NCBI GenBank assembly: GCA_965219085.1
Contig: OZ244720.1
Span: forward strand, 2,592,001-2,656,000
Reading direction: 5' to 3'
Length of the DNA stretch: 64,000 bases
Source of the DNA: Dehalococcoidia bacterium
GTDB taxonomy: Bacteria; Chloroflexota; Dehalococcoidia; UBA2979
Shown: piece by piece, positions 1 through 29,503 of the stretch
Numbering within the stretch: the stretch's first letter is position 1
Layout of the letters: each line of letters starts with the position of its first letter
The notes under the pieces: model-generated
Database searches by the model: none
Told to the model about the DNA's origin: nothing
Seen by the model: only the letters and a program-made list of their open reading frames with translations
Position numbers and translations under genes: made by a program

Positions 1-175
1 GCTCCCCGTCGCCTGCCTGAGAAGCGCGGGTCGCGTGTTCGAGCAGGATCGCGGCGATGCGGCGCAGGCGCGCCTCAGCGTCGGGAGTGGGCCGGTACTC
101 GACGGCGACCACGCGCGGCTCAGGGCCACCGGGGTGGCTGCTCCTCGTGCGCTCCCGCCGCTTCGCCGATTTCAT
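1..175 (-). CDS. Small hypothetical protein, 3' end off window (MKSAKRRER...VEYRPTPDAEARLRRIAAILLEH)
   Basis: Manual translation from ATG at 175, open to the window edge; amphipathic helix; not in ORF track. Confidence 0.5.
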   Translation of the reverse strand, partial: MKSAKRRERTRSSHPGGPEPRVVAVEYRPTPDAEARLRRIAAILLEHATRASQAGDGE

Positions 176-297
176 CTCGTCCGACCTCGTACGCCCGCTC
201 CACGGGCAAAGCGTGATGGGCTGGAGCGCCGGGCGTAATCCCATGAAAGGGACTGCACCGATGACATGTTTCGGCCTTCGCTCGCCCGTCGTACCGC

Positions 298-593
298 CCG
301 TCGCCTCCCGTTATTGGTGCTGCTGACGGCCATCGAGTGTGCGGGGGCGGGCGTGGCGGCGGAATGCCCTATAGGGGAGGGCGCGCGTGGCCCCGCCCCC
401 ATGGAGCGGGCGCAGCCGGGGCCGACGGGTGTCATGGGCGTGTACAGGGAAAAGACGTGAGTTCCGAGAGAGGGAAGTCCCAGAAAACGCAGGCAGGTCA
501 AGGGGAAACGCCTCTACAGGACGCGTCGGGCAGAAATTCGGGAGGAAGCGCGTATTCCACCCGAAGACGCGGAAAGTTCCGTCGGAGGGAAGT
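298..593 (+). promoter_or_regulatory. Conserved non-coding block, copy 1 (oriT/operator-like)
   Basis: Colinear similarity to the reverse complement of 35163-35460; TTCC-N7-GGAA palindromes at 462-476 and 577-591; CTACAGGA motif. Confidence 0.65.
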
Positions 594-922
594 CGGAAAT
601 GACCATCAGGTGCGCGACATCCATGGCCTCGCCCGAGGATGCGGCGGCGATGGTCGGGGCGTCGCCGTCGGGGTCGCCGAACACACCCGGCGAGGACACG
701 CGCCGCGTCGCTCCCGCCCCGGGCGACCGCCGTGGCGTCGTTCCGTCCCGCCCCAGGCATGGGGCGCAGCCCCTTGCGAGCGGACTTCGCGCGTGAAGCC
801 CCCCTGTGAGGGATGGTCGCGCCGTCCCCCGACTCCGACGCTGGAAGCGGCTAGACACCCACCCTGCGGCCCGCAGGGCGGCAAAACGGGCGGGCGTTGC
901 GCCCGCCGGGAGATGGACCAGC

Positions 923-1105
923 GTGAAGACCCAGCGAGCGCTGAGCGACGAGCAGGAACGGCTCCGCATCGAGGGCCTGCGCATCCTTGCGCGCATCATC
1001 GCTCGTCGCGTGCTCGCTCAGCCCCGCCCTCCTGCCGACCCAACGTCAGGGACGCGGACGGACGGGACGCAACGCGAGCGCATCCGCCTCGACCGCGGCG
1101 CGTGA
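923..1105 (+). CDS. Small helical protein (LSDEQERLRIEGLRILARII), paralog of 47932..48138
   Basis: GTG start in ORF 806..1105; shares the EQ..RL.GLR.LAR.I motif with the small gene divergent from the integrase. Confidence 0.6.
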   Translation: MKTQRALSDEQERLRIEGLRILARIIARRVLAQPRPPADPTSGTRTDGTQRERIRLDRGA

Positions 1106-1242
1106 GCCTCCCCCACGGCCAGCGGAGGCGCCGTTCCGCGCCAGCGCACGGGGCGAGGCTGGCGGAGCCTGCGATGCGCACCACTCCGTAGCCACTAGCG
1201 GGAACGGCTCCGTATCATCTCGCGGAGACTCCAGGGGGCGCT

Positions 1243-4200
1243 GTGGTGGCCACGGTCGACGGCACAGGCGACGCGAACAGGGACGCTCGCGTGGGGAGCG
1301 AGCCCGAAGGCGCGGACGGGACTACCGGCGATCCAATCGCGAGCCGGATCGGCGAGTGGCAGACGCGACTGCTCCAGCTCAACCGTCGGAACAACCTGCT
1401 CTATTTCAAGCCCGGGCGTAGCGCGGTCGGGATCACAGGCCTTGGTCCCGACGAACTCTATGATCGGCTCCGCCGGTCGCGGCGCGGCCTCGAGTTCCCA
1501 TACGCGCCACCGCCGAGACGACGCGGCCGGTTCGCTCAGGAAGACGAGCCCGAAGAGGAGCCCGCCGCCCCTGTCAGTTCCCGAGCTGACCTGGCGACGG
1601 ACTGCGAAGTGGTCGACTTGCAGCGGAGACTCCGCAATCTCCGCCGCCGCGACCGCGAATGGGAAGAGGAGCAGGGCCTTAACGTACTCTTCCTCGCCGT
1701 CGGATTCCTCGATTGGATTGACGCCGACGGCGAGCCGGCGCGCTCGCCGCTGGTGTTGATTCCGTGCGACCTCGAACGTGCATCGCCACGCGACCCGTTC
1801 CGCCTGCGAGCCGAGGACGACGATCCGGTAGTGAACCCCACCCTGAGCCACCAGCTTTCGATCCTGGGCGTTGACCTGCCCGCACTCGGCGGCGACTCCT
1901 CCGAGGACGAATCGCTCGACGCGTATATCGCCGCGGTCGGCGACCTCATAGGAAGTCGAGCGGACTGGGCGGTCGATGGCGGCATCGCGCTCGGCGCATT
2001 CTCGTACTCGAAGCTCGCGATGTACCAGGACCTGGAGCGGATGTTGCGTCACGGCGTCCGGAGTGACCTCACGCAACTGCTCGCCTCCGGTGGCGCCGCC
2101 CGAATCGAGCGGGCAACGGCGAGTGGCACGGCACCTGCGGCGGTGCGTGGAGAAGACCTCGCCGGCGGCCGACTGGACGACCTGCTGGATATCCGCGATC
2201 AGTACGCAGTGCTCCCGACCGACTTCAGCCAGCTGGGCGCGCTCGATCAGGCGCGCGAGGGCGGACACCTGGTCATCCACGGTCCGCCGGGCACGGGCAA
2301 GAGCCAGACGATCGCGAACCTGATCGCGACGCTCCTCGCCGACGGAAAGCGCGTCCTCTTCGTAAGCGAGAAGACGGCCGCCCTCGATGTCGTGAAGCAG
2401 CGGCTGGAGGAGTGCGAGCTCGGGGTGTTCTGCTTCGACCTGCACAGTGACCGGGGTAGGAAGAGCGAGGTCTACGCGCAGTTGCGGGAATCCGTCAACA
2501 ACCCCCGCGCGCGCATCGCCGCCGGTGTGTCCGCAGACGAACTGAAGGAGCAACGGGACCGCCTCAACCGTGTCGTGCGCAGGCTCCACGAGCGCCGGCA
2601 ACCGCTGGGGCTGTCGGTGTACGAGGTGCAGGGCCGCTTCGCAGGACTCCGTCACCTTCCCCGGTTCGAGGCGCTCAAGGCACCATCGGTCGCGGATCTG
2701 GAGCAGGAGTGGATTCGTCAGGCCGAGGCCGATGCTGGCCGGATCGCGCGGCGGCCCGCAGAGTTTCTAAGCCATGACGCCAGCCTGTGGATGCCGCTCC
2801 GAACGCCACAGCGCTCGCTACAGCTCGCGGACCTGATCCGGCACGACATGGCGGACGTACTACAAGCCGTTGAGGAGTTCCGAGCGGCCGCCCAGCCGCA
2901 CGCGGAGTGGCTCGGCGTGCGGGCGATCGGGTCCGCGGAGGATGCGCGAGCCGTGGCGCGACTGTTCGAGCTGCTCGCAGAGGCCCCGGCCGTCCCCGGT
3001 GCATGGCTCGAGCCGGGCACTGTGCCGCGTCTGCGCCGGTTGTCGCGAGAGCAGGCCGAGCAGCAGCGCGAACGCCGCCGCCTTGAAGGGGTGCTGTCGG
3101 ACGCGCTCGGTACTGAACCACCATCTATCGACTACCGCGCCGTACTGAGCCGCATACCTCTCTCGCCTGGAGATCAGGAGGCCCTCGAGGCGACGGCGGG
3201 GCGCGGCTGGCGCAGCGCCCTCGCTACCGATCCGTCGGCGCTGTTGGATGAGGCGAGCGACCTTGCCGCGGCACTCGACCGGCTGGCGGCCGGCGCCGCG
3301 GCGATCGCCGAGCCGCTCGGGAACCCGGAACTGCGCACCCTGAGCCGGATTGATCATGCAGCCGGCCTGGCGCAGCGCGTCCTCGGCTTTGATCCCGTCC
3401 CGCAACACTGGCTCACGGCCGCCGCTATCGATGAGCTGGAGGAGGAAGTCGCACAGGCGCGGTCGCTGCTCGACCAGCTCAGTAGTGAGGAGGATGCGCT
3501 CAGGGCGGACTTCTCCGACGGCCTGGTCGAGCTCGTGGATGAGGAGATGCTTGTCCGCTACCGCACGGATCACCAGAGCTTCTGGCGACGTCTCTTCCGT
3601 GGGGAGTACCGGAGTGACCAGCGCGTGCTGAGAGGCCAACTCGCGGCCCCGCGCAAGCTCTCGCCCGTCGAGTCGCTCACCGCGGTCGAGCGCGCCCTCA
3701 ACGTGCAGCGGCTGCGCGCCCGCTGGAGCGAGATCGAGTCGGAGTTGAGCGAGACTCTGGGGGCGCGCTTCCGTGGACGCGAGACGCAGTGGGAGCGAGT
3801 TGGCGAGGATTCCCGGTTGCTGCGCGGGGTGCTCACCGACTGGCGCGGAGAACCCTCCATCCTCCGCGAATTGACTGCCGCCGGAACGGACGGCGAACGG
3901 CGCCACGAGCTCGAATTGGCAACCGAGCCGCTCAACGATGCCCTCGCTCGGTACCGCAGGGCCGTGGAGGCGATCGGCCATGAGCCACTCGGCGATGCGC
4001 AACTGGACGTGGCAGCCACGGGGGAGGCGGTTCGACGGGCGTTGGAGCCGCTGCACCGCATCCGGGACGCAACGGCGGAACTCTTCCGCAGTCTCGTGAA
4101 GCCGCTCGCCGACTACTACGCGCTGATGGGACTTGTCGAGAGCGGCGTGAGGCTCATGGCGATACGTGACGAGGACGAACGCCTGGCACCGGCACTTGCG

Positions 4201-6945
4201 TCTGACTTCGGCACCCTCTTCGCGCACGAGACGACCGACTGGGCAGCTGTGTCGAGAGCGCTCGATTGGACCGAGGGGTTCCTTCGCGCAGCCAACGGGC
4301 GGGTGAGCGACACGCTGCGCCAGCACGTCACCGACCCGCAGGGGGATGGGGAGTACACGGCGCGCGCTCACATCCTCATCGAGGCTTGCGGTCACTATGG
4401 GGAGGCTCTGCGCAGGCTCGATCAACGCTTCGACATCGCCGCTACGGACTGGGCCTCGTGGGATGCGCCTTCCCTTCGCGACATCGAGGCGTGGGCCGCA
4501 GGTCTCCGCGAGAACGCAGGCGACGCACCGGCGTGGGTCGAGTACCGGGACGCAGTGCGTGGGTTCGACGCGCGCTTCGGCGAGGGAGCGGCAACCGCCG
4601 TGCGCTCGCTGACCGAGTCAGCGGCGGATGTGCCGGGCATCGTCGCGCGGCGCGTCTACGAAGCGTGGCTGGACGAGTTGTATGCCGCCGCGCCCGAGCT
4701 CGGCGAGTTCAACCGGGTCGACCACGAGGAGGTCCGCGCACGCTTCCGGGAGCTGGACGAGCAGTTTCCGACGGCGGCGCGTCAGCGGGTACGCGAGCTC
4801 GCATTCGGGAGGTATCCGGAGCAGCACGCGACACCCCTCCAGGCTGGCCAGCTTGGCCTGCTCACCGGCGAACTCTCGAAGCGGCGTCGGCAGATGTCCG
4901 TCCGCCGCCTGATAGCGAGAGTCCCGAACGTGCTACAGGCGCTGAAGCCATGCTTCTTGATGAGTCCCCTCGCGGTCAGTCAGTACCTACCCGACGGCCC
5001 GCTGGAGAGCGATCATCTCGCCTTCGACGTGGTGATCTTCGACGAGGCGTCTCAGGTGCTGCCCGAGGACGCGATCCCGGCCATCGAGCGCGCGCGCCAG
5101 GTGATCGTCGTTGGCGATCGCCTCCAGCTCCCGCCCACGGCGTTCTTCCAAGGTGGCGTCGGTGACGACGACGACAACCTGGACGACGACGATGACAGGC
5201 CCGCCGACGCCTTTGAGGGTCGTGAGAGCATCCTCGACGTCATGGTGGGACAGGTTGGCCCGGGCATCGCCGAGCGGTACCTGTCCGTGCACTACCGCAG
5301 CCGCTGCGAGAGTCTCATTCGCTTCTCGAACCACGCCTTCTACGACAACCGGCTGCTGACATTCCCCGGTCCGGACCCCGACGCCCCGTGCGTGCGTGAT
5401 GTCTACCTGCCGGACGCGACCTACGACGCCGGCGGAAGCCGCCAGAACCGCCTTGAGGCCGAGCGTGTCGCCGACATAGTGTTCGAGTTGATGGAGACGC
5501 TTCCTGACGGTGACAGCGTCGGGGTTGTCGCTCTCTCGCGCGCGCAGGCCGAGCTGATTGAGAACCTGATCGAGCAGGGTCGGCTGATCCGCCGCCATCT
5601 CGACGCACGGTTCAGCGAAGATGTCCGGGAGCGCTTCTTCGTCAAGAACCTGGAGAACGTCCAGGGCGACGAGCGCGACCACATGATCCTGTCGATTGGC
5701 TACGGTCGTACCCCTGCGGGTGCCGTACGGAACAATTTCGGACCGATCAACAACGAAGGTGGCGAGCGCAGGCTGAACGTGGCGGTCACGCGCGCCCGCA
5801 AGTCGATGACCGTCGTCCATGCCCTCCGCCCCGAGGACATCACGTCCACCACGCCCGGCGCCCAGCAGCTGCGCCGCTACCTTGAATACGCGCGCAACCC
5901 GCTCACCGCACTCGACGCCACAGTCACGGGCACGGGCGAACCGGAGAGCCCCTTCGAGGAGGCTGTACTTGCCGCACTGCGCGGCCGCGGGCATCGCGTT
6001 CATGCACAGGTAGGTGTCTCCGGGTATCGGATCGACCTTGCGATCCTGTCGCAGGATGGCGCCGGGTACGACCTCGGAATCGAGTGTGACGGAGCCACCT
6101 ACCACCGCTCGCCCGCCGCTCGGGACCGCGACTGGCTAAGGCAGAAGGTGCTTGAGGGCCTCCACTGGCGCATCCACCGGGTGTGGTCGACCGCATGGAT
6201 CCGGGACCAGGAGTCCGAGATCGCAGCCATCGAGGAAGCGCTCGAACGAGCGCGGGCGGGCGTAGCTGCCGAGCCTCACCCGCCGCCGGCCGCGGACACT
6301 GCGAACGATGTTCCCGAGGAGGCCGCCCCCGCGCGCGGACCTGTCGGCGAGAGGGAACCGGCTATAGAAGCCAGAGCGATCGACGGCCCTGCCCCGATAG
6401 AGACCGAGCTGTTCTTCGATGACTATCGCCGCTCCTACGGCGAACTCTGGGACGGCGACGCGCTCGACATCCCGTTGGCCGCGCTGGCGGCACGGGTCCG
6501 CCATCTCGTCGAGGTCGAACAGCCCGTCCACATCGATGCGGTCGTCGACGGGCTGCGTGTCGTCCTCGGCGTCAGACGGGTCGGTGCACGAATCCGCGCT
6601 CACATTGAGCGCGCGATCTCCACCGCGATCTCGGGCAACGCCCTGTCCCGGGACGGCGAGTTTCTCCAGGTTGCCGAGGAGGCTGGCACTGCGCCGCGTC
6701 CGAGGTACGACCCGGACCGCCCCATCGGACGAGTCGCCGACTCCGAGCTCGACGAGGGCCTGCTGCTCGTCGCTCGTCGCACCTTCGGCGCCTCGTCGTC
6801 GGACCTCGTTCGCGAGACGGCTCGCCAATTCGGCTGGCGCCGTACCGGGCACGACATCAGGGACCGGCTGAACGAACGGATCGACTCACTCCTTGAGAGC
6901 GAGCGGCTGCGTCGGCGAGGTGACACGCTCATCGCTCCGGAGTGA
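1243..6945 (+). CDS. DUF4011 - SF1 (UPF1-like) helicase - Vsr/MTES_1575-like endonuclease - DUF3320 protein; Hhe-type anti-phage defence candidate
   Basis: WQTRLLQLNRRNNLL N-terminus; HGPPGTGKSQT, DEASQ, VQGDERD, RRLNVAVTRAR helicase motifs; ESPFE...GYRIDL...IECDGATYH nuclease motif. Confidence 0.9.
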   Translation: MVATVDGTGDANRDARVGSEPEGADGTTGDPIASRIGEWQTRLLQLNRRNNLLYFKPGRSAVGITGLGPDELYDRLRRSRRGLEFPYAPPPRRRGRFAQEDEPEEEPAAPVSSRADLATDCEVVDLQRRLRNLRRRDREWEEEQGLNVLFLAVGFLDWIDADGEPARSPLVLIPCDLERASPRDPFRLRAEDDDPVVNPTLSHQLSILGVDLPALGGDSSEDESLDAYIAAVGDLIGSRADWAVDGGIALGAFSYSKLAMYQDLERMLRHGVRSDLTQLLASGGAARIERATASGTAPAAVRGEDLAGGRLDDLLDIRDQYAVLPTDFSQLGALDQAREGGHLVIHGPPGTGKSQTIANLIATLLADGKRVLFVSEKTAALDVVKQRLEECELGVFCFDLHSDRGRKSEVYAQLRESVNNPRARIAAGVSADELKEQRDRLNRVVRRLHERRQPLGLSVYEVQGRFAGLRHLPRFEALKAPSVADLEQEWIRQAEADAGRIARRPAEFLSHDASLWMPLRTPQRSLQLADLIRHDMADVLQAVEEFRAAAQPHAEWLGVRAIGSAEDARAVARLFELLAEAPAVPGAWLEPGTVPRLRRLSREQAEQQRERRRLEGVLSDALGTEPPSIDYRAVLSRIPLSPGDQEALEATAGRGWRSALATDPSALLDEASDLAAALDRLAAGAAAIAEPLGNPELRTLSRIDHAAGLAQRVLGFDPVPQHWLTAAAIDELEEEVAQARSLLDQLSSEEDALRADFSDGLVELVDEEMLVRYRTDHQSFWRRLFRGEYRSDQRVLRGQLAAPRKLSPVESLTAVERALNVQRLRARWSEIESELSETLGARFRGRETQWERVGEDSRLLRGVLTDWRGEPSILRELTAAGTDGERRHELELATEPLNDALARYRRAVEAIGHEPLGDAQLDVAATGEAVRRALEPLHRIRDATAELFRSLVKPLADYYALMGLVESGVRLMAIRDEDERLAPALASDFGTLFAHETTDWAAVSRALDWTEGFLRAANGRVSDTLRQHVTDPQGDGEYTARAHILIEACGHYGEALRRLDQRFDIAATDWASWDAPSLRDIEAWAAGLRENAGDAPAWVEYRDAVRGFDARFGEGAATAVRSLTESAADVPGIVARRVYEAWLDELYAAAPELGEFNRVDHEEVRARFRELDEQFPTAARQRVRELAFGRYPEQHATPLQAGQLGLLTGELSKRRRQMSVRRLIARVPNVLQALKPCFLMSPLAVSQYLPDGPLESDHLAFDVVIFDEASQVLPEDAIPAIERARQVIVVGDRLQLPPTAFFQGGVGDDDDNLDDDDDRPADAFEGRESILDVMVGQVGPGIAERYLSVHYRSRCESLIRFSNHAFYDNRLLTFPGPDPDAPCVRDVYLPDATYDAGGSRQNRLEAERVADIVFELMETLPDGDSVGVVALSRAQAELIENLIEQGRLIRRHLDARFSEDVRERFFVKNLENVQGDERDHMILSIGYGRTPAGAVRNNFGPINNEGGERRLNVAVTRARKSMTVVHALRPEDITSTTPGAQQLRRYLEYARNPLTALDATVTGTGEPESPFEEAVLAALRGRGHRVHAQVGVSGYRIDLAILSQDGAGYDLGIECDGATYHRSPAARDRDWLRQKVLEGLHWRIHRVWSTAWIRDQESEIAAIEEALERARAGVAAEPHPPPAADTANDVPEEAAPARGPVGEREPAIEARAIDGPAPIETELFFDDYRRSYGELWDGDALDIPLAALAARVRHLVEVEQPVHIDAVVDGLRVVLGVRRVGARIRAHIERAISTAISGNALSRDGEFLQVAEEAGTAPRPRYDPDRPIGRVADSELDEGLLLVARRTFGASSSDLVRETARQFGWRRTGHDIRDRLNERIDSLLESERLRRRGDTLIAPE

Positions 6946-7313
6946 GACGCGGGCGGAGCGACCGTCGCGCGAATGCGAACGTCGAGAACGGCCCTTCCGG
7001 CAGTTGCTCGCGGACGGAACGCGCGGCAGCGTCAAGGGTTGTCGGTTTCGACACGGTCCTCTGCGAAGAACGTCGCGGCCTCACTCCGCTACAGGAGGCC
7101 CGTGAACCGGCTGAACCGGTTTTGCACCATGTGGCGCGAAACGGGCTGTTTGGGGCAGACAGACGCTGTAGAGAGAAGAACGTAGGTCAGACTGCCCCAC
7201 GGACACCACGAAAGTACTGCGAACACTGGGCTCTTCATGGGGCAGCGTGCACGACAGGCTGTCGCGGGAGAGCCCCCTACAGGAAGTGCTACGCCCGGCC
7301 TTGTGACACTTTG

Positions 7314-9266
7314 TCACCCCGTGGCGAGGAAGTGCGGGCGACGGCGTTCGGGTGCAGCCGGAGCCGGCAACCGCCAGGCTGCACCGAGGGGACCGTCGAA
7401 GCCAATCGACTCGACGGTGGCGCTCGCCAGCGGCGCCTCGGGCATGTCCGAGGCGGTGCGCAGGAAGGCCTCCTCCGCGTGCTCCGTCTCGAACACGAAC
7501 AACACCATGGGCGGCCGTCCCTCGTGGTCGAGCCGCGCCCGTCCGCTCGCGAAGTAGCGGCGGTACGAAGCCAGCCGCTCGGGCAGCCGCTTCGGCGTCG
7601 TCGCCCGCCGTTCGTACTCGAGCAGGTACCACGTCCACTCATCCTTGTAGCCGAGCTGGAACGAGGCGTCGGGATGGATCACGTAGCCCGTGTCGCGATG
7701 CGGGTAGGCGATCTGCGAGCGGTGCGTGGGCAGCAGGTCCAGCAACTTATGGTCGCGGGAGGAGGCGGCGTCGAGGGCGAGCAGCGAGACGAGCTCCGCC
7801 AGCCCCCGCTGGTGCTCGCCCTGCGAGGCGAGGGCGCGCAGCGCGCTCCCGATGTAGATGCAGCCGTCGCGCTGCGGCGTCCAGCGGTCGAGGACCGGTC
7901 CCACGGCCGCCCGGTCGCGCCGCGCGAGGGCGCTCAGGCCCTCGTCCGTGAGCACCAGCGCGTCCCCGTCGCTGCGCACGAGACCGCGCCTGCGCAGCGG
8001 GCGCAGCACCTGGTTCACGCGCCGCGCGCTCACCCCGCCCATGAGGTTGGCGAGTTGCTCCGTCGTGCAGAGCGGCCAAGCCGCGAGCAGGTCCAGCGCC
8101 TGTTTCCCGGCGGCCGTCAGCTGCAGCGCGAGCGCGTCCCCGAACGCATCGTCGCCGCTGGGCGGTGTCGCCCGCACGCCGCCGGCGGAGAGCCAGGCCC
8201 AGTGTCGTTTCGGCAGCACCCCGTGCACGGGGTGCTCCGCCTCGCGTCCGGCCAGGTCGACCAGCCATGCCAGGCTCGTGTCGGGGGCGATGACCGGTGT
8301 GTTCCCGCGACCGTAGCGAGCCGGTTGCCAGACGCGCGCCCACGCGCCGCCGCCGACCACGGCGCCCAGCGTCGCCACCGCGCTGTGGTGGAAGCCCGAG
8401 GGCTCCCCCAACGCGCGCACGGCGCGGCGCGTGTCCTGGTCGGAGTCGGTCGCGACCAGCGTGACGTGAGGAAGCTCCTGCACGCCCATCCGCTCGATCG
8501 TGCGGATGCGGTAGCGCAGGCTGGCGGCGCTCAGGTGCGGCCCCTGCCGCACGACGCCCAGCGTGCGGCCCCCGGAGAGCGTGACGAGCGCGTCGTACGG
8601 CCCCCGGCGGCAGTGCTCGACGCGCACGGGGTCCTGCTCGGGGTCGGCGTCTGCGATCATCGCGGCCAGCTCGTAGACGAGCGCCACGCCGTCGAGGCGC
8701 TCGGCGAGCAGCCGCAACCACTGGCGGGAGACGGGATAGCGGCGCAGCAGGTCGTCGTCGCCAAGGGCCGCGATGCCCGCCGGGGTCGGGACGTAGCGCC
8801 GCAGCGGACGGCCGCTCAGCATCGCCAGGCGGTGCGGATGCGCCTCGGTCAGGCCCAGCCTGCGCAGCTTCGCCAGTCGCTCGCGCAGCGTGGAGGCGGG
8901 CACGCGCTTGATGCGCGAGAGGTCCTCTACGCTCGCGAAGGGCGTCTCGCAGACGAGCAGGAGGGTCTCCGACAGGGCGCGCGTCAGGCGCGGCGTGCGG
9001 GGGCGCTCACGCGGTGCCGGGCGCGAATCGCCCCTGAGTGCGCGCCGCGCCGCAGCGAGCTTGCCGGGGGTGTCGCCGGCCTTGCTCATCACCGCGCGCG
9101 GCAGCGCGCGACCCGGCTGGCCGCGCTCGAGGAAACGCCACAGCGTGTGGCGCGAGACGCCGAACGCCTCAGCCGTGTGGGCGTGCCCGTGCTTCCACGC
9201 ATGGGCGCGGAGATAGCTCCTGATCTCGCCGGTCAGCTTGCTGTCGGGAGCGCCGCTTGTTGCCAC
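7314..9266 (-). CDS. Replic_Relax (MOBC-like, PD-(D/E)XK) relaxase with extra N-terminal HTH
   Basis: HPDASF...LLEYERRATTPKRLPERLASY motif; GTG at 9266 after GAGGA; full-length similarity to 44536..46146. Confidence 0.8.
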   Translation of the reverse strand: MATSGAPDSKLTGEIRSYLRAHAWKHGHAHTAEAFGVSRHTLWRFLERGQPGRALPRAVMSKAGDTPGKLAAARRALRGDSRPAPRERPRTPRLTRALSETLLLVCETPFASVEDLSRIKRVPASTLRERLAKLRRLGLTEAHPHRLAMLSGRPLRRYVPTPAGIAALGDDDLLRRYPVSRQWLRLLAERLDGVALVYELAAMIADADPEQDPVRVEHCRRGPYDALVTLSGGRTLGVVRQGPHLSAASLRYRIRTIERMGVQELPHVTLVATDSDQDTRRAVRALGEPSGFHHSAVATLGAVVGGGAWARVWQPARYGRGNTPVIAPDTSLAWLVDLAGREAEHPVHGVLPKRHWAWLSAGGVRATPPSGDDAFGDALALQLTAAGKQALDLLAAWPLCTTEQLANLMGGVSARRVNQVLRPLRRRGLVRSDGDALVLTDEGLSALARRDRAAVGPVLDRWTPQRDGCIYIGSALRALASQGEHQRGLAELVSLLALDAASSRDHKLLDLLPTHRSQIAYPHRDTGYVIHPDASFQLGYKDEWTWYLLEYERRATTPKRLPERLASYRRYFASGRARLDHEGRPPMVLFVFETEHAEEAFLRTASDMPEAPLASATVESIGFDGPLGAAWRLPAPAAPERRRPHFLATG

Positions 9267-9399
9267 TCGCTGTCCTCTTCGATGGCCGCGGAAGCGTTGC
9301 AACACGTCGGGGAAGGCGCGCACGTGTTGATCCGTGGCGGGCGCGTCGGTCGCGGCGCGCAGTCCTCGTCCAGCTTGCGATCAGGACGTACGTTCGTCA

Positions 9400-9531
9400 A
9401 CGCACCACGACGGCGAGTTCGTGCCGCTGATCCCGGGCGCGCCCAAGTTCGTGAACCGGCCCTTCCACGAGCTGTTCCCGCACGGCGTTCCGCCCCTCAC
9501 GCCGCTGGTCGCCGCAAGCGACGGGCGGTAG
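9400..9531 (+). pseudogene. Orphan 3' fragment of a giant surface-protein gene (C-terminal repeat only)
   Basis: HDGEFVPLIPGAPKFVNRPFHELFPHGVPPLTPLVA versus HDGEFVSYILGAPAFVNREFRELFADGLPAVTPLVA at the end of 11191..24711. Confidence 0.75.
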
Positions 9532-9919
9532 GCCCCCTCGGAGCGCGACACCGCTGCCACTGCGCGCGGCCGAGTTCGCTCCGCCTTCCGCGCAGAACGC
9601 TCTTGCCCGGCAAGCGGCGTGACGGCTGCACTCCGCAGCGCGCCACCGCGTCGCTGGTTCTCAGGCAGTCGCTCATTGCCTGAGAAGAGGCCACACGGCC
9701 CTCAATCCATGACATTCACGCTATGTTCACAGAGTAGCATCGCAAGTTCACGTCCCGTGCACTGACACCAAGCCAACGAGCAGGAAGAATTGCCCCGTTG
9801 AACCTGGGAGAGCGCAACACGCGCGCGAGGGGGCACTGGTGCGTCGGACGGTCGCGAAGTCGAACGGGAACGCGCGGCAGGCAAGCGCAACGGCGCTGCC
9901 TGCGCGCATCGCGCTACTA

Positions 9920-9943
9920 GAACAAACGTACCCCCCCCCCCCC
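9920..9943 (+). promoter_or_regulatory. SOS-box-like site GAAC-AAAC-GTAC followed by a C13 homopolymer
   Basis: Read directly; lies about 250 bp upstream of the surface-protein operon. Confidence 0.45.
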
Positions 9944-10192
9944 ATTTTTCCGTCGGCGGCCCGTAGCCGGGCCTCGCTCGTTCGCTTCAACCGCCTCCGC
10001 CGCAGCGCCGCACGCCCGGAGCACACGCCCGTCCGCCGTCTCTCATCCGAACCGTCGCCGCCCCCGGCGCTCCAGTAGGGGCGCGCCCGTGCGTACCACG
10101 CCTCGTCTGCCGGCGTAGGCGCACGCCGCCGCCCCCGTTGGACGGAGGCTTGACGACGGGGCCATGCGCAACACGCACCAGGAGGAGCAACG

Positions 10193-11194
10193 GTGGCCCA
10201 CACAGCCAGACCCAGGCTCGCCATCCTCTTCGTCGCCCTGGCCGCGCTGCTCGCGCTGTCCCTCACCGGCGCGCCGGCCCAGGTCCAGGAGGGCTCCGCC
10301 CCCGAACGGCCCACGGGCCTGGCCCTCTCGGACGTCAGGCACGACTCGGTGACCCTGACCTGGGACGACCCCGGTGACCCCAGCATCACCCACCACCAGA
10401 TCTTCCGGCGGGACCTCGCCGTCCACGCCGTCGGCGAGTTCGTCGCCATCGAGGAAGACACCGGCTCGGCGGCCACCAGCTACACCGACGCAACGGTGCA
10501 GCCGGAGCAGGGCTACGTCTACCGGGTCAAGGCGGTGAACCGGCACGGGGCCAGCCAGTGGTCGCGGTACGCGGGCGCCGACACCCCGGCGGCGTCCAGC
10601 CCGGAGCTTGGGCCCGAACCGACGCCGCAAGGCTCCCCCACGCCCACCCCTACGGCAAAGCCGGTGGTCCTGCCGCTCAAGGACCTGCCCACGACATTCG
10701 CCAAGCGCTCAACGACAGGCGGACGGGGAGACGCAAGCTCGGCGCAGGGAGCGGTCTACACCTACGAGGACGGCGACCGGACCATCAGAGTCGTCTTGCA
10801 GACCGATCTCGTCGTCCGGCAGACCGGCGCCGACACGTCCACCAACGTTGTGGTGCGCCGCGTGGCCGGGGGCAGCATCGTCCGCAGTCACTTCGCATAC
10901 GGCGCCGCTGCCCAGCCGGTGTTCCGCTCTGCGTCGGGAGGTCAGCTGATGACGCTGCCCGGCGGCGTGCTGCTCGCCCTGGACCCGGAGTGGGACCGGG
11001 ACAGGGTCCAGCGCTTCTTCTCGGAGAACAGCATCTCCAAGGCACGAATATCCGAGCGGAACTTCATACCGAACGGCTTCTTCGTGGAGACCGAGCCGGG
11101 TTTTCCGTCACTTGATCTGGCCAACGCGTTGGCGGCGCAGGAGGGCGTCGTGTTTGCCAGCCCCAACTGGTGGCAGGAAGCCTCGACGCAATGA
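10193..11194 (+). CDS. Secreted protein: signal peptide, fibronectin type III domain, Pro/Thr linker, subtilase prodomain-like C-terminal domain
   Basis: GGAGG RBS; Fn3 pattern (VTLTWDDP...YVYRVKAVN); ends SLDLANALAAQEGVVFASPNW; ATGA overlap with next gene. Confidence 0.8.
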   Translation: MAHTARPRLAILFVALAALLALSLTGAPAQVQEGSAPERPTGLALSDVRHDSVTLTWDDPGDPSITHHQIFRRDLAVHAVGEFVAIEEDTGSAATSYTDATVQPEQGYVYRVKAVNRHGASQWSRYAGADTPAASSPELGPEPTPQGSPTPTPTAKPVVLPLKDLPTTFAKRSTTGGRGDASSAQGAVYTYEDGDRTIRVVLQTDLVVRQTGADTSTNVVVRRVAGGSIVRSHFAYGAAAQPVFRSASGGQLMTLPGGVLLALDPEWDRDRVQRFFSENSISKARISERNFIPNGFFVETEPGFPSLDLANALAAQEGVVFASPNWWQEASTQ

Positions 11195-23100: not shown

Positions 23101-24711
23101 AGCGGCGGCGGCGGGGGTGGTGGCGGCCCGTCGGGGCCCTCGCCGAGCGAGCTGGACTTCGAGTGGAACGTGAAGCGCGACCTCGAAGCGCTGGACGGCG
23201 GCCACGACACGCCGACCGGCTCCTGGTCGGACGGCACAACCCTCTGGATACTCGAAAACGGCTCCGGCGCCGACGACGCCATCTACGCCTACGACCTGAA
23301 CACGGGCGAACGCCTGGAGGAGCGCGAGTTCGAACTCGACGAGCGCAACCGCGCACCGCGCGGCGTCTGGTCCAACGGCACGGTCATCTGGGTCTCCGAC
23401 AGCGGCCAGGACCGCCTCTTCGTCTACGACCTCGGGACGGGCGAGCGGCTGCCGGAGCGCGACCTCGAGCTCGGCGAGCGCAACGGCGGCGCCCGCGGCA
23501 TCTGGTCCGACGGCGTCACGATGTGGGTGCTCGACAGCCTCTTCGCCTACGACCTCGGGAGCGGCGAGCTGCTGGCGGAGTACGCCCTCGACGACGCCAA
23601 CGGGAGTCCCCACGGGATCTGGTCGGACGGCGTCACGATCTGGGTCTCGGACCACGGCGCGAAGCGGCTCTTCGCCTACCGCCTCGAGGATGGGGCGCTC
23701 GTACGCAACAGCGAGGAGGAGTTCACGGAGCTGAGCAAGGCCTCCAACAACAGCCCGCGCGGCATCTGGTCGGACGGCGAGGTGATCTACGTGGCCGACG
23801 AGAGCGACGACAAGGTCTACAGCTACAACATGCCCGACGCGATCGACGCGCGCCTCGCCTCACTGTCGCTGAGCGGCATCGAGATCGGGGAGTTCTCGGG
23901 GGACCGCACGGAGTACGACGGCGTCGCCGCCGAGGGCGTGACGGAGACGACGGTCGAGGCGGAGGCGATGCAGCGCCGTACGGATGTCGCCATCGACCCG
24001 CCCGACGGCGACGGGGACGAGGCGAACGGGCACCAGGTGGCGCTGGAGGGCGTCGAAGAGATCACCGTCACCGTCACCTCGGCCGACGACAGCCGCACGA
24101 AGGTCTACCGTGTGCGCTTCCCTGAGGTGGCGTGGGACCCGGCCCGCGATCCCTGGCCGCACTGCCTGCGCGGCGCCGTCTCCGAGGGCTTCAGTCTCAT
24201 CGTCTACGAGGGGGGCAGCGTCGAAGAGCTGCTCGCCTGCGCGGAGAGCCGGGAGATCGTGGCCCTCTACGCCCTGCATGAGGGTGTCTACATTTCCTAC
24301 ATCCTCGGGGCGCCGGACTTCGTCAACCGCGAGTTCACTGAGCTGTTCGCCGGCGGGTTCCCGGTCATGACGCCTCTCGTCGCCGGCAGCAACGGACCGC
24401 CCTCGGCGGACCCGTTCGGGGATGACCTTGACGCCGCTGGGCCGCAGCCGTGGCCGGAGTGCCTGCGCGGGGACGTTGTCGAGGGCTTCAGCCTCGTCAT
24501 CTACGAGGGCGGTAGCGTCGATGATCTCGTGAACTGCGCAGAGAGCTTGCGCGTCACGGCCCTCTACGCGCTCCACGACGGCGAGTTCGTCTCCTACATC
24601 CTCGGCGCGCCTGCGTTCGTGAACCGCGAGTTCAGGGAGTTGTTCGCCGACGGCCTGCCCGCCGTCACGCCGCTGGTCGCCAAGAGCGAGGGGCCTCACG
24701 AGGCCAACTGA
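11191..24711 (+). CDS. Giant secreted surface protein (4,506 aa): PPC-like domains, kexin-like S8 peptidase with P-domain, WSDG beta-propeller repeats, cadherin, Fn3 and other Ig-like domains, two C-terminal repeats
   Basis: Catalytic triad motifs VAVVD, HHGTYVAG, GTSAATP; FAAGN oxyanion motif; LTWRDLK; many GIWSDGTTMWVAD repeats; cadherin motifs ATDADGD/LDYE; ATG at 11191 overlaps upstream TGA. Confidence 0.92.
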   Translation: MRRPRPPAHGGRRAFLLARLGRNIHALLLRNAWMLLAALLVSPLLVLHATGVAGQTIETRDGDTFATATDISLGASVEGEIDSADDPDYFKLDLSGQSGTTDVVISTTGSTDTTGKLYGSDEMLIMEDDNSGTDTNFHMEETLSPGVYYVLVEGSGSATGSYTLYAKPVLSPGSSVEMSIDSIGEVDHHILDLTGETGTTDVSLFAVSDNLRLVRSNGSKPDRLTNTDALGQRRVLHHWYYTDVDGGTAYAFDVKSDDVEEESWRTGDYRVHFATVPSGAGSFFDPTTLSLDVPTSGKLRSLDHYFGLTLDEPKDLVIMTFLSARAVILDSDGNEISVNDTYDHSSEYLYSTISDDFAAGNYFVKISAPDANSFNPVYYALYAYEDTGYGEWSDACDVATGALTFQVSDPLYACQWHLNSADSAGMDIDVESVWASVTGAGVNVAVVDETIDYSHEDLAANVDSTLSYDYGPLSSAYRSIDHHGTYVAGVIAARDNAIGVRGVAPRATIYGYNLLGDGETLFSHDRAVDAMSRNQDVTGVSNNSWGLSGDSAGFVMAPTQWWTVLDGGVTQGYGGKGVFYVFAAGNGHPYGANSNLDEMINHYGVTAVCAVGAEDTRASYSEQGVNLWVCAPSQGGYEGDAAADRAIVTTENSDRYTNAFVGTSAATPIVSGVAALLRQVNPALTWRDLKLILAASARKNDPGNAGWTDGTRKYGSSNASDTYHFNREYGFGMVDAGAAVALARSWSLLPPFLDDSEQSSPLNAAIPDNNTSGITSSLTLDTDIEFTEFVEVEVTIDHSYWRDLQIELESPDGAVSTLAVAAQVSPSASPGTFRFGSAKHLGEDPNGAWKLRVSDQVAVDSGTLESWSIKVYGHGSTIRAASTGPTTATATVWQHNPDSASRTVHLRHSDNDGATWSTPAVQTTTGASVEFSVTGLAPNAEYKLQASLDGAFADKVQADFVNRPARQDIGTASPSRNLKGLWSDGTTMWVADRTNFRIYAYTLATGARDADKDISNLAGAGNTHPEGIWSNGTTMWVSDFFDEKLYAYALDGGARDADKEFNLAAANTSHWGLWSDGATIWVADSGDEKLYAYALDGGAREADKDINTLAAGNAYPWGLWSDSTTMWVSDLSNGRVYAYTLATGADEGRKFNTLAAGNGNPFGIWSDGKTMWVADSQGKLYAYYVPANTNLSALSVNGTPVADFRPGFTTYQLAVANLVTQATVSGDAADGDATVAYGGAANATGQVDLVEGRNVVTVTVTAEDAAITKDYTVSINRASAAPYGWRADKDLDTLAAAGNTFPFDIWSDSTTAWVVDWQDQKLYAYTLATGARNAVKEFDLKSGNTSPTGIWSDGATIWVGDSQDDMFYAYMLDTGARVSNKDLDPSLVAVGDLWSDGTTMWMADFGNRKLYAYTVVTGRRNPDKDIDLTTTNVYGHGLWSDGTTMWVADLQGKLYAYALDGGARKAGQDFDTLAAAGNISSRGIWSDGETMWVADSHDAKIYAYNMPPPNSPPEFSDGASTTRSVAENTAPGENVGSAVAATDVDGDTLTYTLEGTDAASFDIVTTSGQILTSAALNYEQKTSYSVTVSVADGEGGTDTIGVTINVTDVNEKPATPGPPTVTATANITTSLDVSWTAPGLNGGPALTGYEVRYRISGSWIDWTHSGTGTSATITGLTASTTYDVQVRALNGETPSAWSSTGTGSTGTPANNAPEFSDGASTTRSVAENTASGANVGSAVTATDADGDTLTYTLDGTDAASFDITSTSGQILTSAALNYEQKTSYSVTVSVADGEGGTDTIGVTISVTDVNEKPTTPGAPTVTATSNTTDSLDVSWTAPGLNGGPALTGYEVRYRISGSWIDWTHSGTGTSATITGLTASTTYDVQVRALNGETPSDWSSTGAGSTGTPANNAPEFSDGTSTARSVAENTASGANVGSAVTATDADGDTLTYTLGGTDAASFSIVGASGQIQTSAALDHETKSSYSVTVSVADGEGGTDTIGVTISITDVDEPPSAPAAPAISGVSGFNDRLLVSWTAPSDTDRPAVTDYDVQYRESGVGAWSDWSHTGTATTTTITGLDAGATYQVQVRAENDEGEGAWSASGTQATNAPPAFAGSTTTRAVEENTAAGMGVGAVVTATDADNDTLTYSLEGTDASSFVIVANSGGIQTKSNVTYDHEAKSTYSVTVRAKDGQGGDATISVTITITDVDEPPSAPAAPGVAFTSGTTDGLDVSWDAPVDTGKPPLTSFEVQYRKTSASTWATWLFVGPGATAKIKGLDAGTEYEVQVRANNDEGMSAWSASGMAETDAAPAFASGDCQYNSCTVTFGESLDSTSGNTPPVGAFTLTAGGASLTIGGVSVSGTTVTLSSVSPFIRQGQAITLAYADPSTNNDTAALQDALGNDVASFSETLTNSSPYDFPSEPTQLSALQNGRNQIDVEWTAPTDNGGDANFSYRLEVSTDAGANWTTQVASQTATTYNHTGLMAGDTRHYRVFTVNIIGDSRASSTASATTNRPPTGALVIDGTAQVAEKLTANTSNISDADGLPADDQFNFQWLRVAGGNEFSIPGATQSSYRPVPADLGQTLRVRLDYDDNAEFAETLTSAATAAVQESPYGEIVWAATLTAGQAGTTLGFNSTGPVGSLEAKTFAPGAITVSQLTYDGGAGTFAVTGLGSGDYILYLGSGPQGAHALIVDPASDADDVFDFSSTGLSWSAGQAVEVRLTLNREPVGVPLISGAAVEGTTLTAGIENVTDADGLPASDQFRYQWIVTDGGTESEITGATGTTYTPELTDLGKTYTVRVDYTDNANFPESLTSAPTDPIEVRGQVIWSAELTVEGWGEPSLRSFGFDASSATVRGALQPDTIIHNGAYEVESLLYSGHQSFGTGPVLNKTMLFSTTTELPAGDYALWVVDDDGDADLGDLPFIFPAADADGFLQNPVVLTWADDDTVDVRLTVNRLPGGALTISGQAKVGTTVTADVSGVSDADGLPASGEFRYQWFTVDSGSNTPIGGETDQNYTPVSADLGKSIRVRLRYTDDAFFTNTVFSAAAVVASGTGNHPPQFSTTSTSRTLTENTGAGVNVGAAVSASDADSGDSLTYTLEGTDAGSFDIVPASGQIQTKTGVTYDFETQTSYSVTVKADDGNGGTDTVAVTINVVNVNEPPVISGVSSVSYAEGGTAEVASYSATDEEGATITWSLSGTDAGDFEIGANSGVLTFKTSPDYDNPADGNGDNDYLIRVQASDGTNLVPFDVTVTVTGVDELPTIPSGPASVDYAENGTAAVATYSATDPEGDTITWALIGPDAGAFAIDAGGVLTFAATPDYENPSDQGGQSGDNVYSLLVVASDAGNNTALLAVTVTVTPVDETPVVGGQANVSYAENGTADVETYSAADPEGDPITWSLAGADAGDLAIDATGVLTFTAPPDYEDPRDQGGDNEYVVTVQAFDGTNMGTREVTVTVIDVNEPPVISGDATVGFAEHATGSVATYTADDPDDATIIWTLAGTDSGFFSLSGGVLTFDTPPNFELPQDANFSNDYEITIGASDGANPVSQAVTVTVVDLEEPGTISLSSPQPQVGTGLTSTLDERDAIVVAAVRKWHRSPDGSTAWTLILGATASSYTPVQGDLNYYLRVTVSYTDTHGPKTPEAVSENAVRPVPAGANHRPEFDEGFSTTRSVAENSAGDTPIGDPVEATDADPADVVALTYSLSGSDLFTVDPATGQIAVAEGAVLNHEAQASHTVTLTVADPGGLEDTITVTITITDVNEAPEPVGDDATTNEDTPVMIEVLDNDSDPEDDDLTVSSFNSPANGSVARARDDPNKLTYTPDPDFHGVDTFTYQATDARGLFGEATVVVMVNPVNDAPEFPAGPVQRSVVETAQAGDKVGDPVEAIDPDVGDTLTYALSGIDVSSFGIDGDTGQITVAADVDLEPTTEDNLALSVTVTATEVRTDGQSPASDSIQVTITVTTGSTGPVISGGGGGGGGPSGPSPSELDFEWNVKRDLEALDGGHDTPTGSWSDGTTLWILENGSGADDAIYAYDLNTGERLEEREFELDERNRAPRGVWSNGTVIWVSDSGQDRLFVYDLGTGERLPERDLELGERNGGARGIWSDGVTMWVLDSLFAYDLGSGELLAEYALDDANGSPHGIWSDGVTIWVSDHGAKRLFAYRLEDGALVRNSEEEFTELSKASNNSPRGIWSDGEVIYVADESDDKVYSYNMPDAIDARLASLSLSGIEIGEFSGDRTEYDGVAAEGVTETTVEAEAMQRRTDVAIDPPDGDGDEANGHQVALEGVEEITVTVTSADDSRTKVYRVRFPEVAWDPARDPWPHCLRGAVSEGFSLIVYEGGSVEELLACAESREIVALYALHEGVYISYILGAPDFVNREFTELFAGGFPVMTPLVAGSNGPPSADPFGDDLDAAGPQPWPECLRGDVVEGFSLVIYEGGSVDDLVNCAESLRVTALYALHDGEFVSYILGAPAFVNREFRELFADGLPAVTPLVAKSEGPHEAN
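15725..17220 (+). repeat. About 2.5 near-identical 600-bp tandem units (cadherin + Fn3) inside the giant gene
   Basis: CGCCGGAGTTCAGCGACGGG recurs at 15725, 16325 and 16925 with long identical stretches. Confidence 0.9.
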
Positions 24712-26516
24712 TCGCTCTTCGCTGCCTGCGCCAGCTCGTAACGGCAACCGCCTATCGGCCTGGTGGAGGCAACGCCGCCTCCCATGAGTAGCGCAGCGTT
24801 TGGTGTGGATTGGAAAACCGAGACCTCCGTCTCGAACCAGACGATCGTCGGGAAGTCGACGAGGTCGAGGCCCGTCTGCACGAGCCGCGGGTGGCAGACG
24901 AGCACGTCGGCACCCTCCTCGACGCGCTGCGCCACCCACGCCTCGCGGCGCTCAGGCGGGACGGCGTCGGACTTCATGACGGCCACCCGGAAGCCGTGGC
25001 GGCCGAGGAAGTCCTCCATCCGCCCCGTGATGTCGCGCGTCCCGGTGTGGGTCGCGTAGACGAGCACCCGGCGGCCCTGGACCCGCTCGGCGGCGACGAG
25101 GTCGACCAGCGCCTGCTCCTTCGGGTAGAGCTTCTCCGCAGGGAGCGGCGGCACCTGTACGAGCAGCTCTTCGCCCTCCGGGTCGAAGACCGCCTCGCCG
25201 CGCGTGCAGCCGTCGGGGTAGGCCAGCAGCGTCTGCAGGTAGGTCGCGAGCAGCCGCCGCGAGCCCTTCGAGAGCGCGTCGGCGAGCGCCGCCCGCAGCG
25301 TCCCGAAGAGCGTGTCGTAGCCGCTGTGCTGCGAGAGCCCGGCGGCGTCCGCCTCCGCGTCCATCGAGGAGAGCAGCACGCGCTCCTCGTAGGCCGGGAG
25401 TCCCGAGGCCACGTCGGCGAGCCGCAGGAAGACGCTGTTGCCGATGAGGTGGAAGAGGGCGGCCGGGGCGAGCCCCGGGCGCTCCCGGATCACCTTCCGG
25501 TACTTGCGCCTGCGGCTCGTGCGCCCGTCCTCGAGTGAGTCGCCGTCGTCGCGGCCGATCGTGTGCTCGACGAAGCCGTAGCGCTCGATCCAGCGGCCCT
25601 CCTCGGAGCGCCCGAACTCCCCCCGAATCTCCGGGCTGAACCGGTAGAGCAGGTGGAAGAGCGTCGAGGAATAGCCGCCCATGAGCGTGCCGCTCAGGCT
25701 GAGCGACTTGCCGCAGACGTCGGCGAGGATGCCGGCGGCGATGCCCTGGGCGGAGCCGCGGCCCTTGTACTCGTGCACCTCGTCGCCGACGAGCAGGTCG
25801 AAGAAGCCCTTCAGGCGGTGCTTCACGTAGTCGGCGAGCGGGTAGCGCTTCGGACCGGAGCGGTCGGCCTGCCAGAGGGCGGAGCCGCACTCCGGGCACC
25901 AGCGCTTGCGGCGGCCGAGGTCACGGCCGAGCAGGGGCACGCCGTCCTTGTCGACGATCTGGGCGTGGCAGTCCGGGCAGCACGGCACGCGGAACGGCTC
26001 GCCCGTCTCCTCGTGGCGGACGAGGCGGCCGCGCACCGTCGCCCAGCGCTCCACCGTGGCGGGCTGCCAGCGGTAGGAGAGCTTGGCGCGCTCGCGCGAC
26101 ATGATCGCGAAGAGCGGGCCGAGGCCGGTCGTGGCGCGCAGCCGCTCGAGGTCGGTGATCGAGGCGACGATGACGGCGCGGGCGCCGGGCACCGTCTCCT
26201 CGACCTCGCGCTTCCACTTGCGGGTGAGGTGCGGCGGGCAGAGCACGAGCACCCGCTCGAAGCCGGCCATGTGCGCCGCCGAGGCGGCGATGAAGGTCTT
26301 GCCCGTGCCCATCTCGCCGACCACGGTCGTGCCGCGCTGCGCCTCGAGCGAGAGCGCCGCGCCGCGGATCGCGTCGGCCTGCGCCCCCAGGGGAGCGCGC
26401 AGCAGGGGCGGGAGTTCGCGGCCCGGCTCGGAGGGCCGGTAGCGGGGTGGGTAGGACTCCACCACCCGCCGGGCGATGGCGTCGCGGTATGCGTCGATGA
26501 ATCCTGCGAGGTCCAT
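24696..26516 (-). pseudogene. SF2 (SNF2/DEAD-like) helicase, apparently 3'-truncated
   Basis: GEMGTGKT, DEVHEYK, SGT, LVQTGLDL motifs present; no arginine-rich motif VI; reads into unrelated sequence after WFETE at about 24826. Confidence 0.75.
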
Positions 26517-29385: not shown

Positions 29386-29503
29386 GTTGCTTCTCCTTGG
29401 TGGTGGTGCTGATCGGGTGGAACGAGAGCGGGGCCGCCCCCGTGAGGGAGCGGCCCCGTGTGCGCCCGCACGCGGCGGGCGGCGTCTGTGTGCCGTTGGT
29501 TGG

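Follow-up and report, generated by a model that had tools for sequence, protein, structure and literature searches.

A putative mobilisable element with a large serine recombinase, nested in the helicase gene of an integrative and conjugative element of a Dehalococcoidia bacterium

Among the integrative and mobilisable elements (IMEs) of streptococci, those of the IME_SNF2 group carry serine integrases and insert into the snf2 methylase/helicase gene of integrative and conjugative elements (ICEs) of the Tn5252 superfamily, as far as this is described in the parts of two reports available to us (PMC5357655, PMC7168690). According to the same parts, the recombination site of IME_Spy2096_SNF2 lies within the integrase gene itself, many copies are decayed and target genes truncated, and MobC is listed only for two IME_Class_8 elements, which also carry VirD4 (PMC5357655, PMC7168690). 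The subject of the present analysis is an insertion in the genome of a Dehalococcoidia bacterium (Chloroflexota; UBA2979), where the helicase gene of an ICE with a type IV secretion system (T4SS) is interrupted within a stretch of 64,000 nucleotides, hereafter the window (assembly GCA_965219085.1, contig OZ244720.1, positions 2,592,001 to 2,656,000 of the forward strand). A second known design is represented by the mobilisable transposons Tn4451/Tn4453 of clostridia, which are about 6 kb long, encode the large serine recombinase TnpX, which excises and integrates them, and the mobilisation (Mob) protein TnpZ, belong to a different Mob family, and are relaxed in their choice of target. Literature searches on Chloroflexota, Dehalococcoidia and Tepidiformaceae, judged by titles and abstract openings, listed no report of an ICE or IME in the class; a serine-integrase element in an ICE helicase gene, known from streptococci, is apparently not yet described in Chloroflexota.

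The locus is best explained, with high confidence, by an integrative element of about 26.64 kb that inserted site-specifically into the helicase gene of a T4SS-type ICE and that may be mobilisable by this ICE. The window has a G+C content of about 70% and belongs to a single contig of 3.31 Mb; positions below are those of the window, 1 to 64,000, and negative numbers denote DNA to its left.

The helicase open reading frame (ORF; 24696-26570, minus strand) encodes 624 amino acids (aa), of which the last part runs through element DNA to 24696. The product is helicase-like through '...LVQTGLDLVDFPTIVWFETE' and then continues as 'VSVFQSTPNAALLMGGG...*' without motif VI; an intact paralogue at genome positions 719,398-721,698 reads '...CWYETDYSVYTMRQASRRSWRIGQ...' at the same point. 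The Pfam domains agree, with ResIII only in the truncated ORF and both ResIII and Helicase_C in the intact 1145-aa methylase-helicase fusion, and thereby bear out the initial annotation, made from the letters of the window, in which the helicase was seen to lack motif VI and to turn into unrelated sequence. That annotation had also placed the missing 3' half and an integrase to the left of the window, and both were found there. A tblastn search whose query was the last 196 residues of the intact paralogue located the 3' half at genome 2590185->2589631 (18185->17631 of locus L001), 1.8 kb left of the window, where it begins at the first codon after the break; it shares the strand of the 5' part and is 26.6 kb away from it. 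When the two halves were joined by script at the dinucleotide GA, an in-frame ORF of 770 aa resulted, which contains motif VI ('YSVYTMRQASRRSWRIGQ') and is 88.6% identical to the intact paralogue over 765 aa.

Close homologues do not end at this position; had they done so, the proposed insertion would have been refuted. In addition to the paralogue, helicase homologues in three of the four same-genus genomes searched are unbroken, with open frames of 766-1020 aa, and plasmid homologues align through residue 1006 of 1145. Pairs of a DUF6094 methylase and a DEAD helicase are found, at 34-43% identity, on plasmids of Thermus, Thermoanaerobacterium and proteobacteria. As a separate observation, methylase and helicase form one 1145-aa ORF in the intact ICE copy (L096 2395-5832) and separate ORFs, 40 nucleotides (nt) apart, in the window (24696-27644).

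Directly upstream of the helicase 3' half, and abutting it, lies an intact ORF of 597 aa with the three domains of a large serine recombinase, a match to the integrase family PHROG 95 (3.5e-100) and a CxxC ribbon. Its stretch 'IYARVSDKSQ' contains the RVS motif, and the serine there is at what we take to be the position of the catalytic serine of large serine recombinases. The recombinase ORF crosses the crossover core, so that it encodes 597 aa as integrated and would encode 551 aa after excision, with 527 aa common to both forms; the left arm of the element's attachment site (attP) lies within the 3' end of the recombinase gene.

The two junctions were defined by comparison with the paralogue. 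In the sense of the helicase, the right junction reads helicase '...TGGTTCGAGACGGA' and then 'GGTCTCGGTTTTCCAATCC...', and the left junction reads '...GATTGCCAAACCGGAGCCGA' and then helicase 'CTACTCCGTCTACACG...'. GA is the sole dinucleotide common to both junctions and the empty site and is taken as the crossover on that ground. In the same-genus genome used for comparison of the element ends (G018), CA stands at both junctions in place of GA, a matched change of the kind expected of a crossover core. The element-side arms at the two ends form an imperfect dyad, each an inverted repeat of the other, as would be expected of the attP of a serine integrase. The short inverted repeat that had been noticed at the breakpoint, CGAGACCTCCGTCTCG at 24819-24834, is present (1 match, against 0.06 expected) and is a hybrid site composed of the element's P' arm, the crossover TC of the plus strand at 24826-24827 and the helicase B arm; since perfect 6/4/6 inverted repeats number 63 in the window, it gains significance only through its position. 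The element extends from about 1813 nt left of the window to position 24825; position 1 is not its start. The anatomy of the locus points to the GA core as the place at which the serine recombinase inserted the element.

These ends recur. Within this genome, the break falls at the identical codon in five helicase 5' parts, each of them followed by the same ~40 nt, and the P' arm is found at four loci with no more than 5 mismatches. A second recombinase copy at 358 kb, 91% identical and interrupted by one in-frame TGA, abuts another helicase 3' half. In G018 a recombinase that is likewise 91% identical abuts a helicase 3' half, and about 17 kb from the recombinase end a helicase 5' part runs into the same P' arm of 45 nt. 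The cargo between them differs: it encodes a trypsin-like peptidase, a permease and an RCC1-repeat protein, and both an adhesin and an Hhe-like gene are missing.

Additionally, one genome per species was scanned for relatives of the recombinase, and the best 80 of 249 were kept; all but one of the 80 loci are labelled as Dehalococcoidia, Tepidiformaceae or other Chloroflexota metagenome-assembled genomes, and the remaining one is in a bin labelled Gammaproteobacteria. In 16 of the 80, tblastn places residue 1 of a helicase 3' half immediately after the recombinase, and a seventeenth (L022) shows the helicase junction before its contig ends. The other 63 have different sequences behind the same conserved gene end, which indicates that the recombinase family uses several targets. 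A maximum-likelihood tree that was built quickly and left unfinished (76 rows, made up of 75 loci and this copy, the five loci with matches under 450 aa being left out) places the helicase-linked recombinases in two well-supported groups, which hold them in 10 of 12 and 8 of 11 rows and are not sisters; because its root is at the midpoint only, no order of events is drawn from it.

Several further observations concern these relatives. Related recombinases among L026-L095 share the gene end '...TCGATTG...' yet abut different DNA. Flanks that are related to one another, with FML as first codons, follow in L057, L078, L083, L085 and L087, of which L083, L085 and L087 read FMLVGAMNPC, presumably resembling ComM/Mg-chelatase-like genes; at several other loci CACCGAC repeats follow. 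In L079 it is the helicase 5' side that adjoins the recombinase, and its orientation is reversed. A DDE_Tnp_1/DUF772 transposase (Pfam) is situated inside a decayed element copy (L015 9542-10516), and a long open frame that we take to be IS1182-type transposase-like follows the broken helicase on its downstream side at 3,111 kb (region 3,106,100-3,111,300 of the genome).

The criteria for IMEs were those used in PMC5357655 / PMC5704250. With regard to them, the insert has an integration and excision enzyme of its own, the 597-aa ORF with its three domains, which its domains, PHROG 95 and the core (GA shared by the junctions here, CA in G018) assign to the large serine recombinases. It is a discrete element with attachment sites and an empty target, as seen in the junctions, the paralogue, the restored gene and the G018 ends. 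A complete T4SS module is absent from it; the T4SS genes all belong to the ICE on the right, and in the scanned ORFs of 1-24800 no T4SS, coupling-protein, VirB4, VirB6, pilin or phage structural family was matched, in line with the earlier statement that no T4SS lies left of the break. An origin from a phage was also considered and rejected; PHROG matches are limited to the integrase and to noise from fn3 domains.

At the left end, upstream of the recombinase, the element carries a small module. Third-position G+C (GC3) served as the measure of coding status for the ORFs. An ORF of 86 aa is conserved in three copies (here, in the 358-kb genome copy c358 and in G018) and has no Pfam or PHROG match; that it encodes a regulator or directionality factor is a guess. 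It is followed by a non-coding block of about 300 nt that is also kept upstream of related recombinases and that is about 71% identical by blastn to positions 35164-35433 of the ICE, in inverted orientation and just upstream of the ICE T4SS genes. The second block resembling an origin of transfer (oriT), proposed before these comparisons, is therefore real as a sequence shared with the ICE, and as an oriT it is a candidate only. At Rfam gathering scores, the window contains five tRNAs only and the shared block no structured RNA. An ORF at 337-1191 was rejected as a gene (GC3 0.68); its Arg/Gly-rich product aligns to the ICE only as translated non-coding DNA. The small gene with the motif GLR.LAR.I, for which a twin in the ICE had been claimed, was recovered by a motif scan together with this twin. 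Each of the two is divergent from the serine recombinase of its own element; the ORF at 806-1105 has no family match in Pfam, NCBIfam and PHROG scans, and its nucleotide relatives adjoin other ICE recombinases.

The second relaxase expected left of the break is encoded at 7314-9323 on the minus strand. Its product scores 35.9 bits against PF13814 (Pfam cut-off 25.3), is 33% identical to that of the ICE gene at 44536-46146 and shares with the ICE paralogues an alignable block, 'PDA ... LE.ERRA'. PF13814 is equated with MobC relaxases in the portion of PMC5357655 available to us, and the gene is, by this match above the cut-off of the family model, predicted to encode a MobC-type relaxase. The overlapping ORF 6942-9683 of the plus strand (913 aa) was rejected in its favour (GC3 0.73 versus 0.91).

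The remainder of the insert consists of predicted defence and adhesin cargo, as had been stated for it. The 1900-aa protein matches PDC-S37 of PADLOC (E=0, 1270 bits) and Hhe (2e-150); against the curated NCBIfam models for Hhe and ProA (NF042953, NF058533) it reaches 1180 bits for ProA (cut-off 1500) and 728 bits for Hhe (cut-off 2000). By its domains it is a relative of Hhe/ProA with the same domain set that falls outside equivalog membership by the curated cut-offs, and a role against phages is predicted on this basis. Beyond the relaxase gene, the DNA at 9400-10597 is 89% identical to the regions upstream of two adhesin genes beside the intact ICE copy. The giant adhesin gene follows, whose C-terminal 499 aa have many paralogues in the genome. 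The features of the insert and of its host are collected in Table 1.

Table 1. Features of the nested element and its host ICE, in window coordinates.
Feature	Position	Strand	Evidence and remarks
Large serine recombinase, 597 aa	-2025..-232 (L001 17975-19768), outside the window	-	Resolvase + Recombinase + Zn_ribbon_recom (Pfam)
86-aa ORF	1..244, extends 16 nt left of the window	-	Upstream of recombinase, co-directional; GC3 0.84
Conserved non-coding block, candidate oriT or regulatory region	300..617		~300 nt; no coding GC3 signal
Small GLR.LAR.I ORF	806..1105	+	Motif scan; GC3 only 0.79; ICE twin 47932-48138 (-)
DUF4011 / SF1 helicase / MTES_1575 nuclease / DUF3320 protein, 1900 aa	1243..6945	+	Pfam; Hhe/ProA-like anti-phage cargo (predicted)
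Replic_Relax (PF13814, MobC-type) relaxase-like protein, 669 aa	7314..9323	-	N-terminal helix-turn-helix (HTH) extension; GC3 0.91
fn3-domain protein, 333 aa, upstream part of adhesin cassette	10193..11194	+	Pfam fn3
Giant secreted-type adhesin, 4513 aa	11170..24711	+	Subtilase S8, P-domain, cadherin, fn3, Big_9 repeats (Pfam); convergent with broken helicase
P' arm, element right end	24781..24825	-	Conserved after helicase break at 5 genomic loci and in G018
Inferred crossover dinucleotide, GA in helicase sense (TC on plus strand)	24826..24827	-	Common to both junctions and empty site
ICE DEAD/ResIII helicase, 5' part, ~580 codons	24828..26570	-	Ends between motifs V and VI; Pfam, paralogue alignment
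DUF6094 DNA methyltransferase, helicase partner	26610..27644	-	Pfam
Host ICE body	28355..46146		RadC, two single-stranded DNA-binding proteins (SSB), Rad52-like, primase, TrbL/VirB6, T4SS pilins, VirB4-like ATPase, coupling protein, PF13814 relaxase (Pfam)
Large serine recombinase of the ICE	48369..50042	+	ORF reads into tRNA-Gln (49949-50022, minus strand), ICE right end

The host ICE is collinear in its body with the ICE copy that has an intact helicase, at 80-89% identity. Beyond its PF13814 relaxase come HTH proteins and then a second large serine recombinase, that of the ICE itself, which is only about 27% identical to that of the nested element. Similarity of the ICE to two other copies stops at about 49954, at the 3' end of tRNA-Gln, and in the ICE as in the nested element the recombinase gene reads across its own attachment site. 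The two SSB genes are adjacent (29504-29902 and 30053-30598) and lie with RadC, the Rad52-like gene and the primase in a block resembling a leading region.

To the left of the element, the interval between two helicase 3' fragments (L001 10924-17631) encodes a DUF1156-type methylase, a 458-aa protein of unknown type, an SNF2-like helicase and an NOV_C protein. Genes for a type III restriction enzyme-like protein, a PIN protein and a TmtA-like protein of 1516 aa follow further left. The region at genome 2,582,179-2,589,631 looks like a defence-gene cluster, either in the left arm of the ICE or in another inserted element. Still further left, at genome 2,556,720-2,571,000, is a decayed tandem ICE copy, which has an internal deletion in its coupling-protein gene, frameshifts in both its relaxase and its ICE-type recombinase, and extra relaxase fragments.

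The mechanism suggested by these features can be outlined as follows. The recombinase would pair attP with a target of about 40 bp in the helicase codons between motifs V and VI and exchange strands at the central GA. The insertion split the helicase, of which the 5' part is left at 26570->24828 while the 3' part adjoins the recombinase. Lacking a transfer apparatus, the element can travel passively inside the ICE, and its excision would restore the helicase. After excision, the coupling protein and T4SS of the ICE may mobilise it, with its own MobC-type relaxase acting on the ICE-like origin; it is the relaxase paralogue together with the ICE-like block that suggests such separate mobilisation through the coupling protein and pore of the ICE.

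Other accounts of the locus have to be weighed against this one. If the helicase were a decayed pseudogene or ended here naturally, the inverted repeat would be a product of chance, for which the abundance of 6/4/6 repeats in the window provides some room; the break of five copies at the identical codon before the same 40-nt sequence, the homologues that run past it and the existence of a 3' half that fits in frame refute this account. An inversion or translocation driven by the recombinase within the ICE, without any foreign element, could also have parted the helicase ends. Such a rearrangement would be consistent with the intact ICE copy, in which the helicase stop lies about 480 nt from a homologous adhesin gene that is convergent with it, and with inverted arrangements of adhesin ends and helicase fragments elsewhere in the genome. 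However, the same two ends bracket unrelated cargo in G018, the recombinase-helicase junction is conserved in 17 of the 80 loci from other genomes, and the halves are in direct orientation, which a single inversion cannot explain; we therefore regard a rearrangement of this kind as very improbable.

More weight must be given to the view that the insert began as an element of the proposed kind and is now a fixed composite island that no longer excises or transfers on its own, its adhesin cassette, defence gene and perhaps relaxase being later additions that arose through homologous recombination with the many adhesin arrays and ICE remnants of the genome. This view accepts the origin by insertion and disputes present mobility only, so that it overlaps with the explanation preferred here. 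It is favoured by the presence of only two full recombinase copies in the genome, one with an in-frame TGA, against five helicase 5' ends with the P' arm and more than ten helicase 3' fragments, by the completely different cargo in G018, by the rarity of a close relaxase orthologue (one of 12 same-genus genomes), and by the IME_SNF2 element of streptococci that was tested, which did not excise according to the available part of the report (PMC7168690). On the opposite side, this copy has unbroken frames throughout, for the recombinase, the relaxase, the defence gene, the adhesin and the two helicase halves alike, and the open genes and the halves that rejoin into a full ORF argue for a recent or still reversible insertion. 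We consider a fixed island possible and, all told, doubtful.

A number of results nevertheless weigh against an element that is still mobile and of stable composition. All P' arms found (four here, one in G018) come after a helicase B arm, and a P' arm behind the recombinase is absent from all 80 recombinase loci, so that no excised or attP form was seen in either set. Logan assemblies of four public runs give no verdict on excision: over window 24000-27000 they are too fragmented (pieces of 86-197 nt), none spans 24826, and one unitig of 182 nt stops at 24815 in all four. Other genomes match only the recombinase, the 86-aa ORF and the block to about 617, with nothing from there to 3000, the limit of this search. 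A close orthologue of the relaxase (78%) occurs in only one of 12 same-genus genomes searched, the G018 element retains only a 0.4-kb relaxase remnant, and the relaxase is not a stable part of the element family. Cassettes beside the intact ICE copy share 86-89% identity with the adhesin cassette, which for this reason may be a later acquisition by homologous recombination, which would make the insert composite. The host raises doubts of its own. Its left end was not found through the tRNA-Gln repeat or through similarity to the intact ICE copy, and the region left of the element is a rearranged patchwork of decayed relaxase, recombinase and coupling-protein fragments, and 7.4 kb further left lies another helicase 3' fragment, which is more diverged than the first (L001 10179-10733); with the boundary missing and the DNA rearranged, the host ICE may not be transfer-proficient.

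The adhesin genes form a further subject. About 25 paralogues of the C-terminal 499 aa exist in the genome, several of them in tandem arrays of 13-15-kb genes, for example at 298-377 kb, 603-719 kb, 803-866 kb, 1865-1944 kb and 3104-3106 kb. Of the 25 adhesin 3' ends listed, 13 are within 170 nt of sequence derived from the helicase attachment site. Behind eight of these 13 lies a co-directional helicase 3' fragment, and in three of the eight (318064, 346099, 1924170) the adhesin tail, itself conserved, leads into 17-19 nt of variably decayed B-arm sequence from the helicase, a second type of junction, so that these three keep a near-minimal target site (attB). Two more of the 13 keep only a short attB-like stretch, one has a hybrid of B-arm and P'-like sequence, and two abut a P' arm and a helicase 5' half. 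The helicase attachment site could do more than receive a single satellite and could be pictured as a recombination hub at which giant adhesin genes of this lineage are relocated and increased in number, an idea that we rate as rather unlikely; if serine recombinases of this family act on these sites, they would shuffle adhesin cassettes, in the manner of gene cassettes, among ICEs, nested elements and chromosomal arrays. The tight association of giant adhesin genes with attachment-site remnants is the more unusual thread of this analysis.

The strategy of a parasite of a parasite, in which a serine-integrase element occupies the methylase/helicase gene of an ICE, is not peculiar to streptococci and recurs in Chloroflexota, a phylum with hardly any descriptions of conjugative elements. 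An attP/attB pair of a new large serine integrase can be taken directly from the paired junctions and the empty site, with the covariation of GA and CA in the core, and the predicted cargo connects the traffic of conjugative elements with defence against phages and with surface adhesins of very large size in this lineage.

In comparison with the nearest described systems, the integration module of the host ICE (47932-50042) is similar to that of the nested element in that a serine recombinase reads across the boundary and a GLR.LAR.I ORF is divergent from it; the two also have paralogous PF13814 relaxases and a related non-coding block. They differ in recombinase sequence and in target, which is the 3' end of tRNA-Gln for the ICE and the ICE helicase for the nested element. 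Tn4451/Tn4453 resemble the nested element in having a large serine recombinase, a 2-bp crossover and a mobilisation protein of their own without a T4SS, whereas the element described here is 26.6 kb long and occupies one defined target in an ICE gene. As for the streptococcal IME_SNF2 elements, the precedent of serine-integrase IMEs in ICE helicase genes to which the initial annotation had appealed is in print, within the parts of the reports available to us (PMC5357655, PMC7168690), and its proposal of an analogous satellite holds for the logic of the insertion and the kind of target, as a parallel to the streptococcal elements in a host that belongs to the Chloroflexota. As far as those parts describe them, IME_SNF2 elements and the nested element both carry a large serine integrase, disrupt a conserved methylase and helicase gene of an ICE, lack a T4SS, bear accessory cargo and leave decayed copies and truncated targets, and IME_Spy2096_SNF2 has its recombination site inside the integrase gene, as is the case here. 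The differences, within the same text, concern the hosts (Firmicutes there, Chloroflexota here), the relaxase, of the PF13814/MobC type here, and the cargo, which is antibiotic resistance in streptococci and an anti-phage gene with a giant adhesin in the present element. The likeness to IME_SNF2, with its Ser_3 integrases and COG4646 snf2 target, is one of architecture and target type only.

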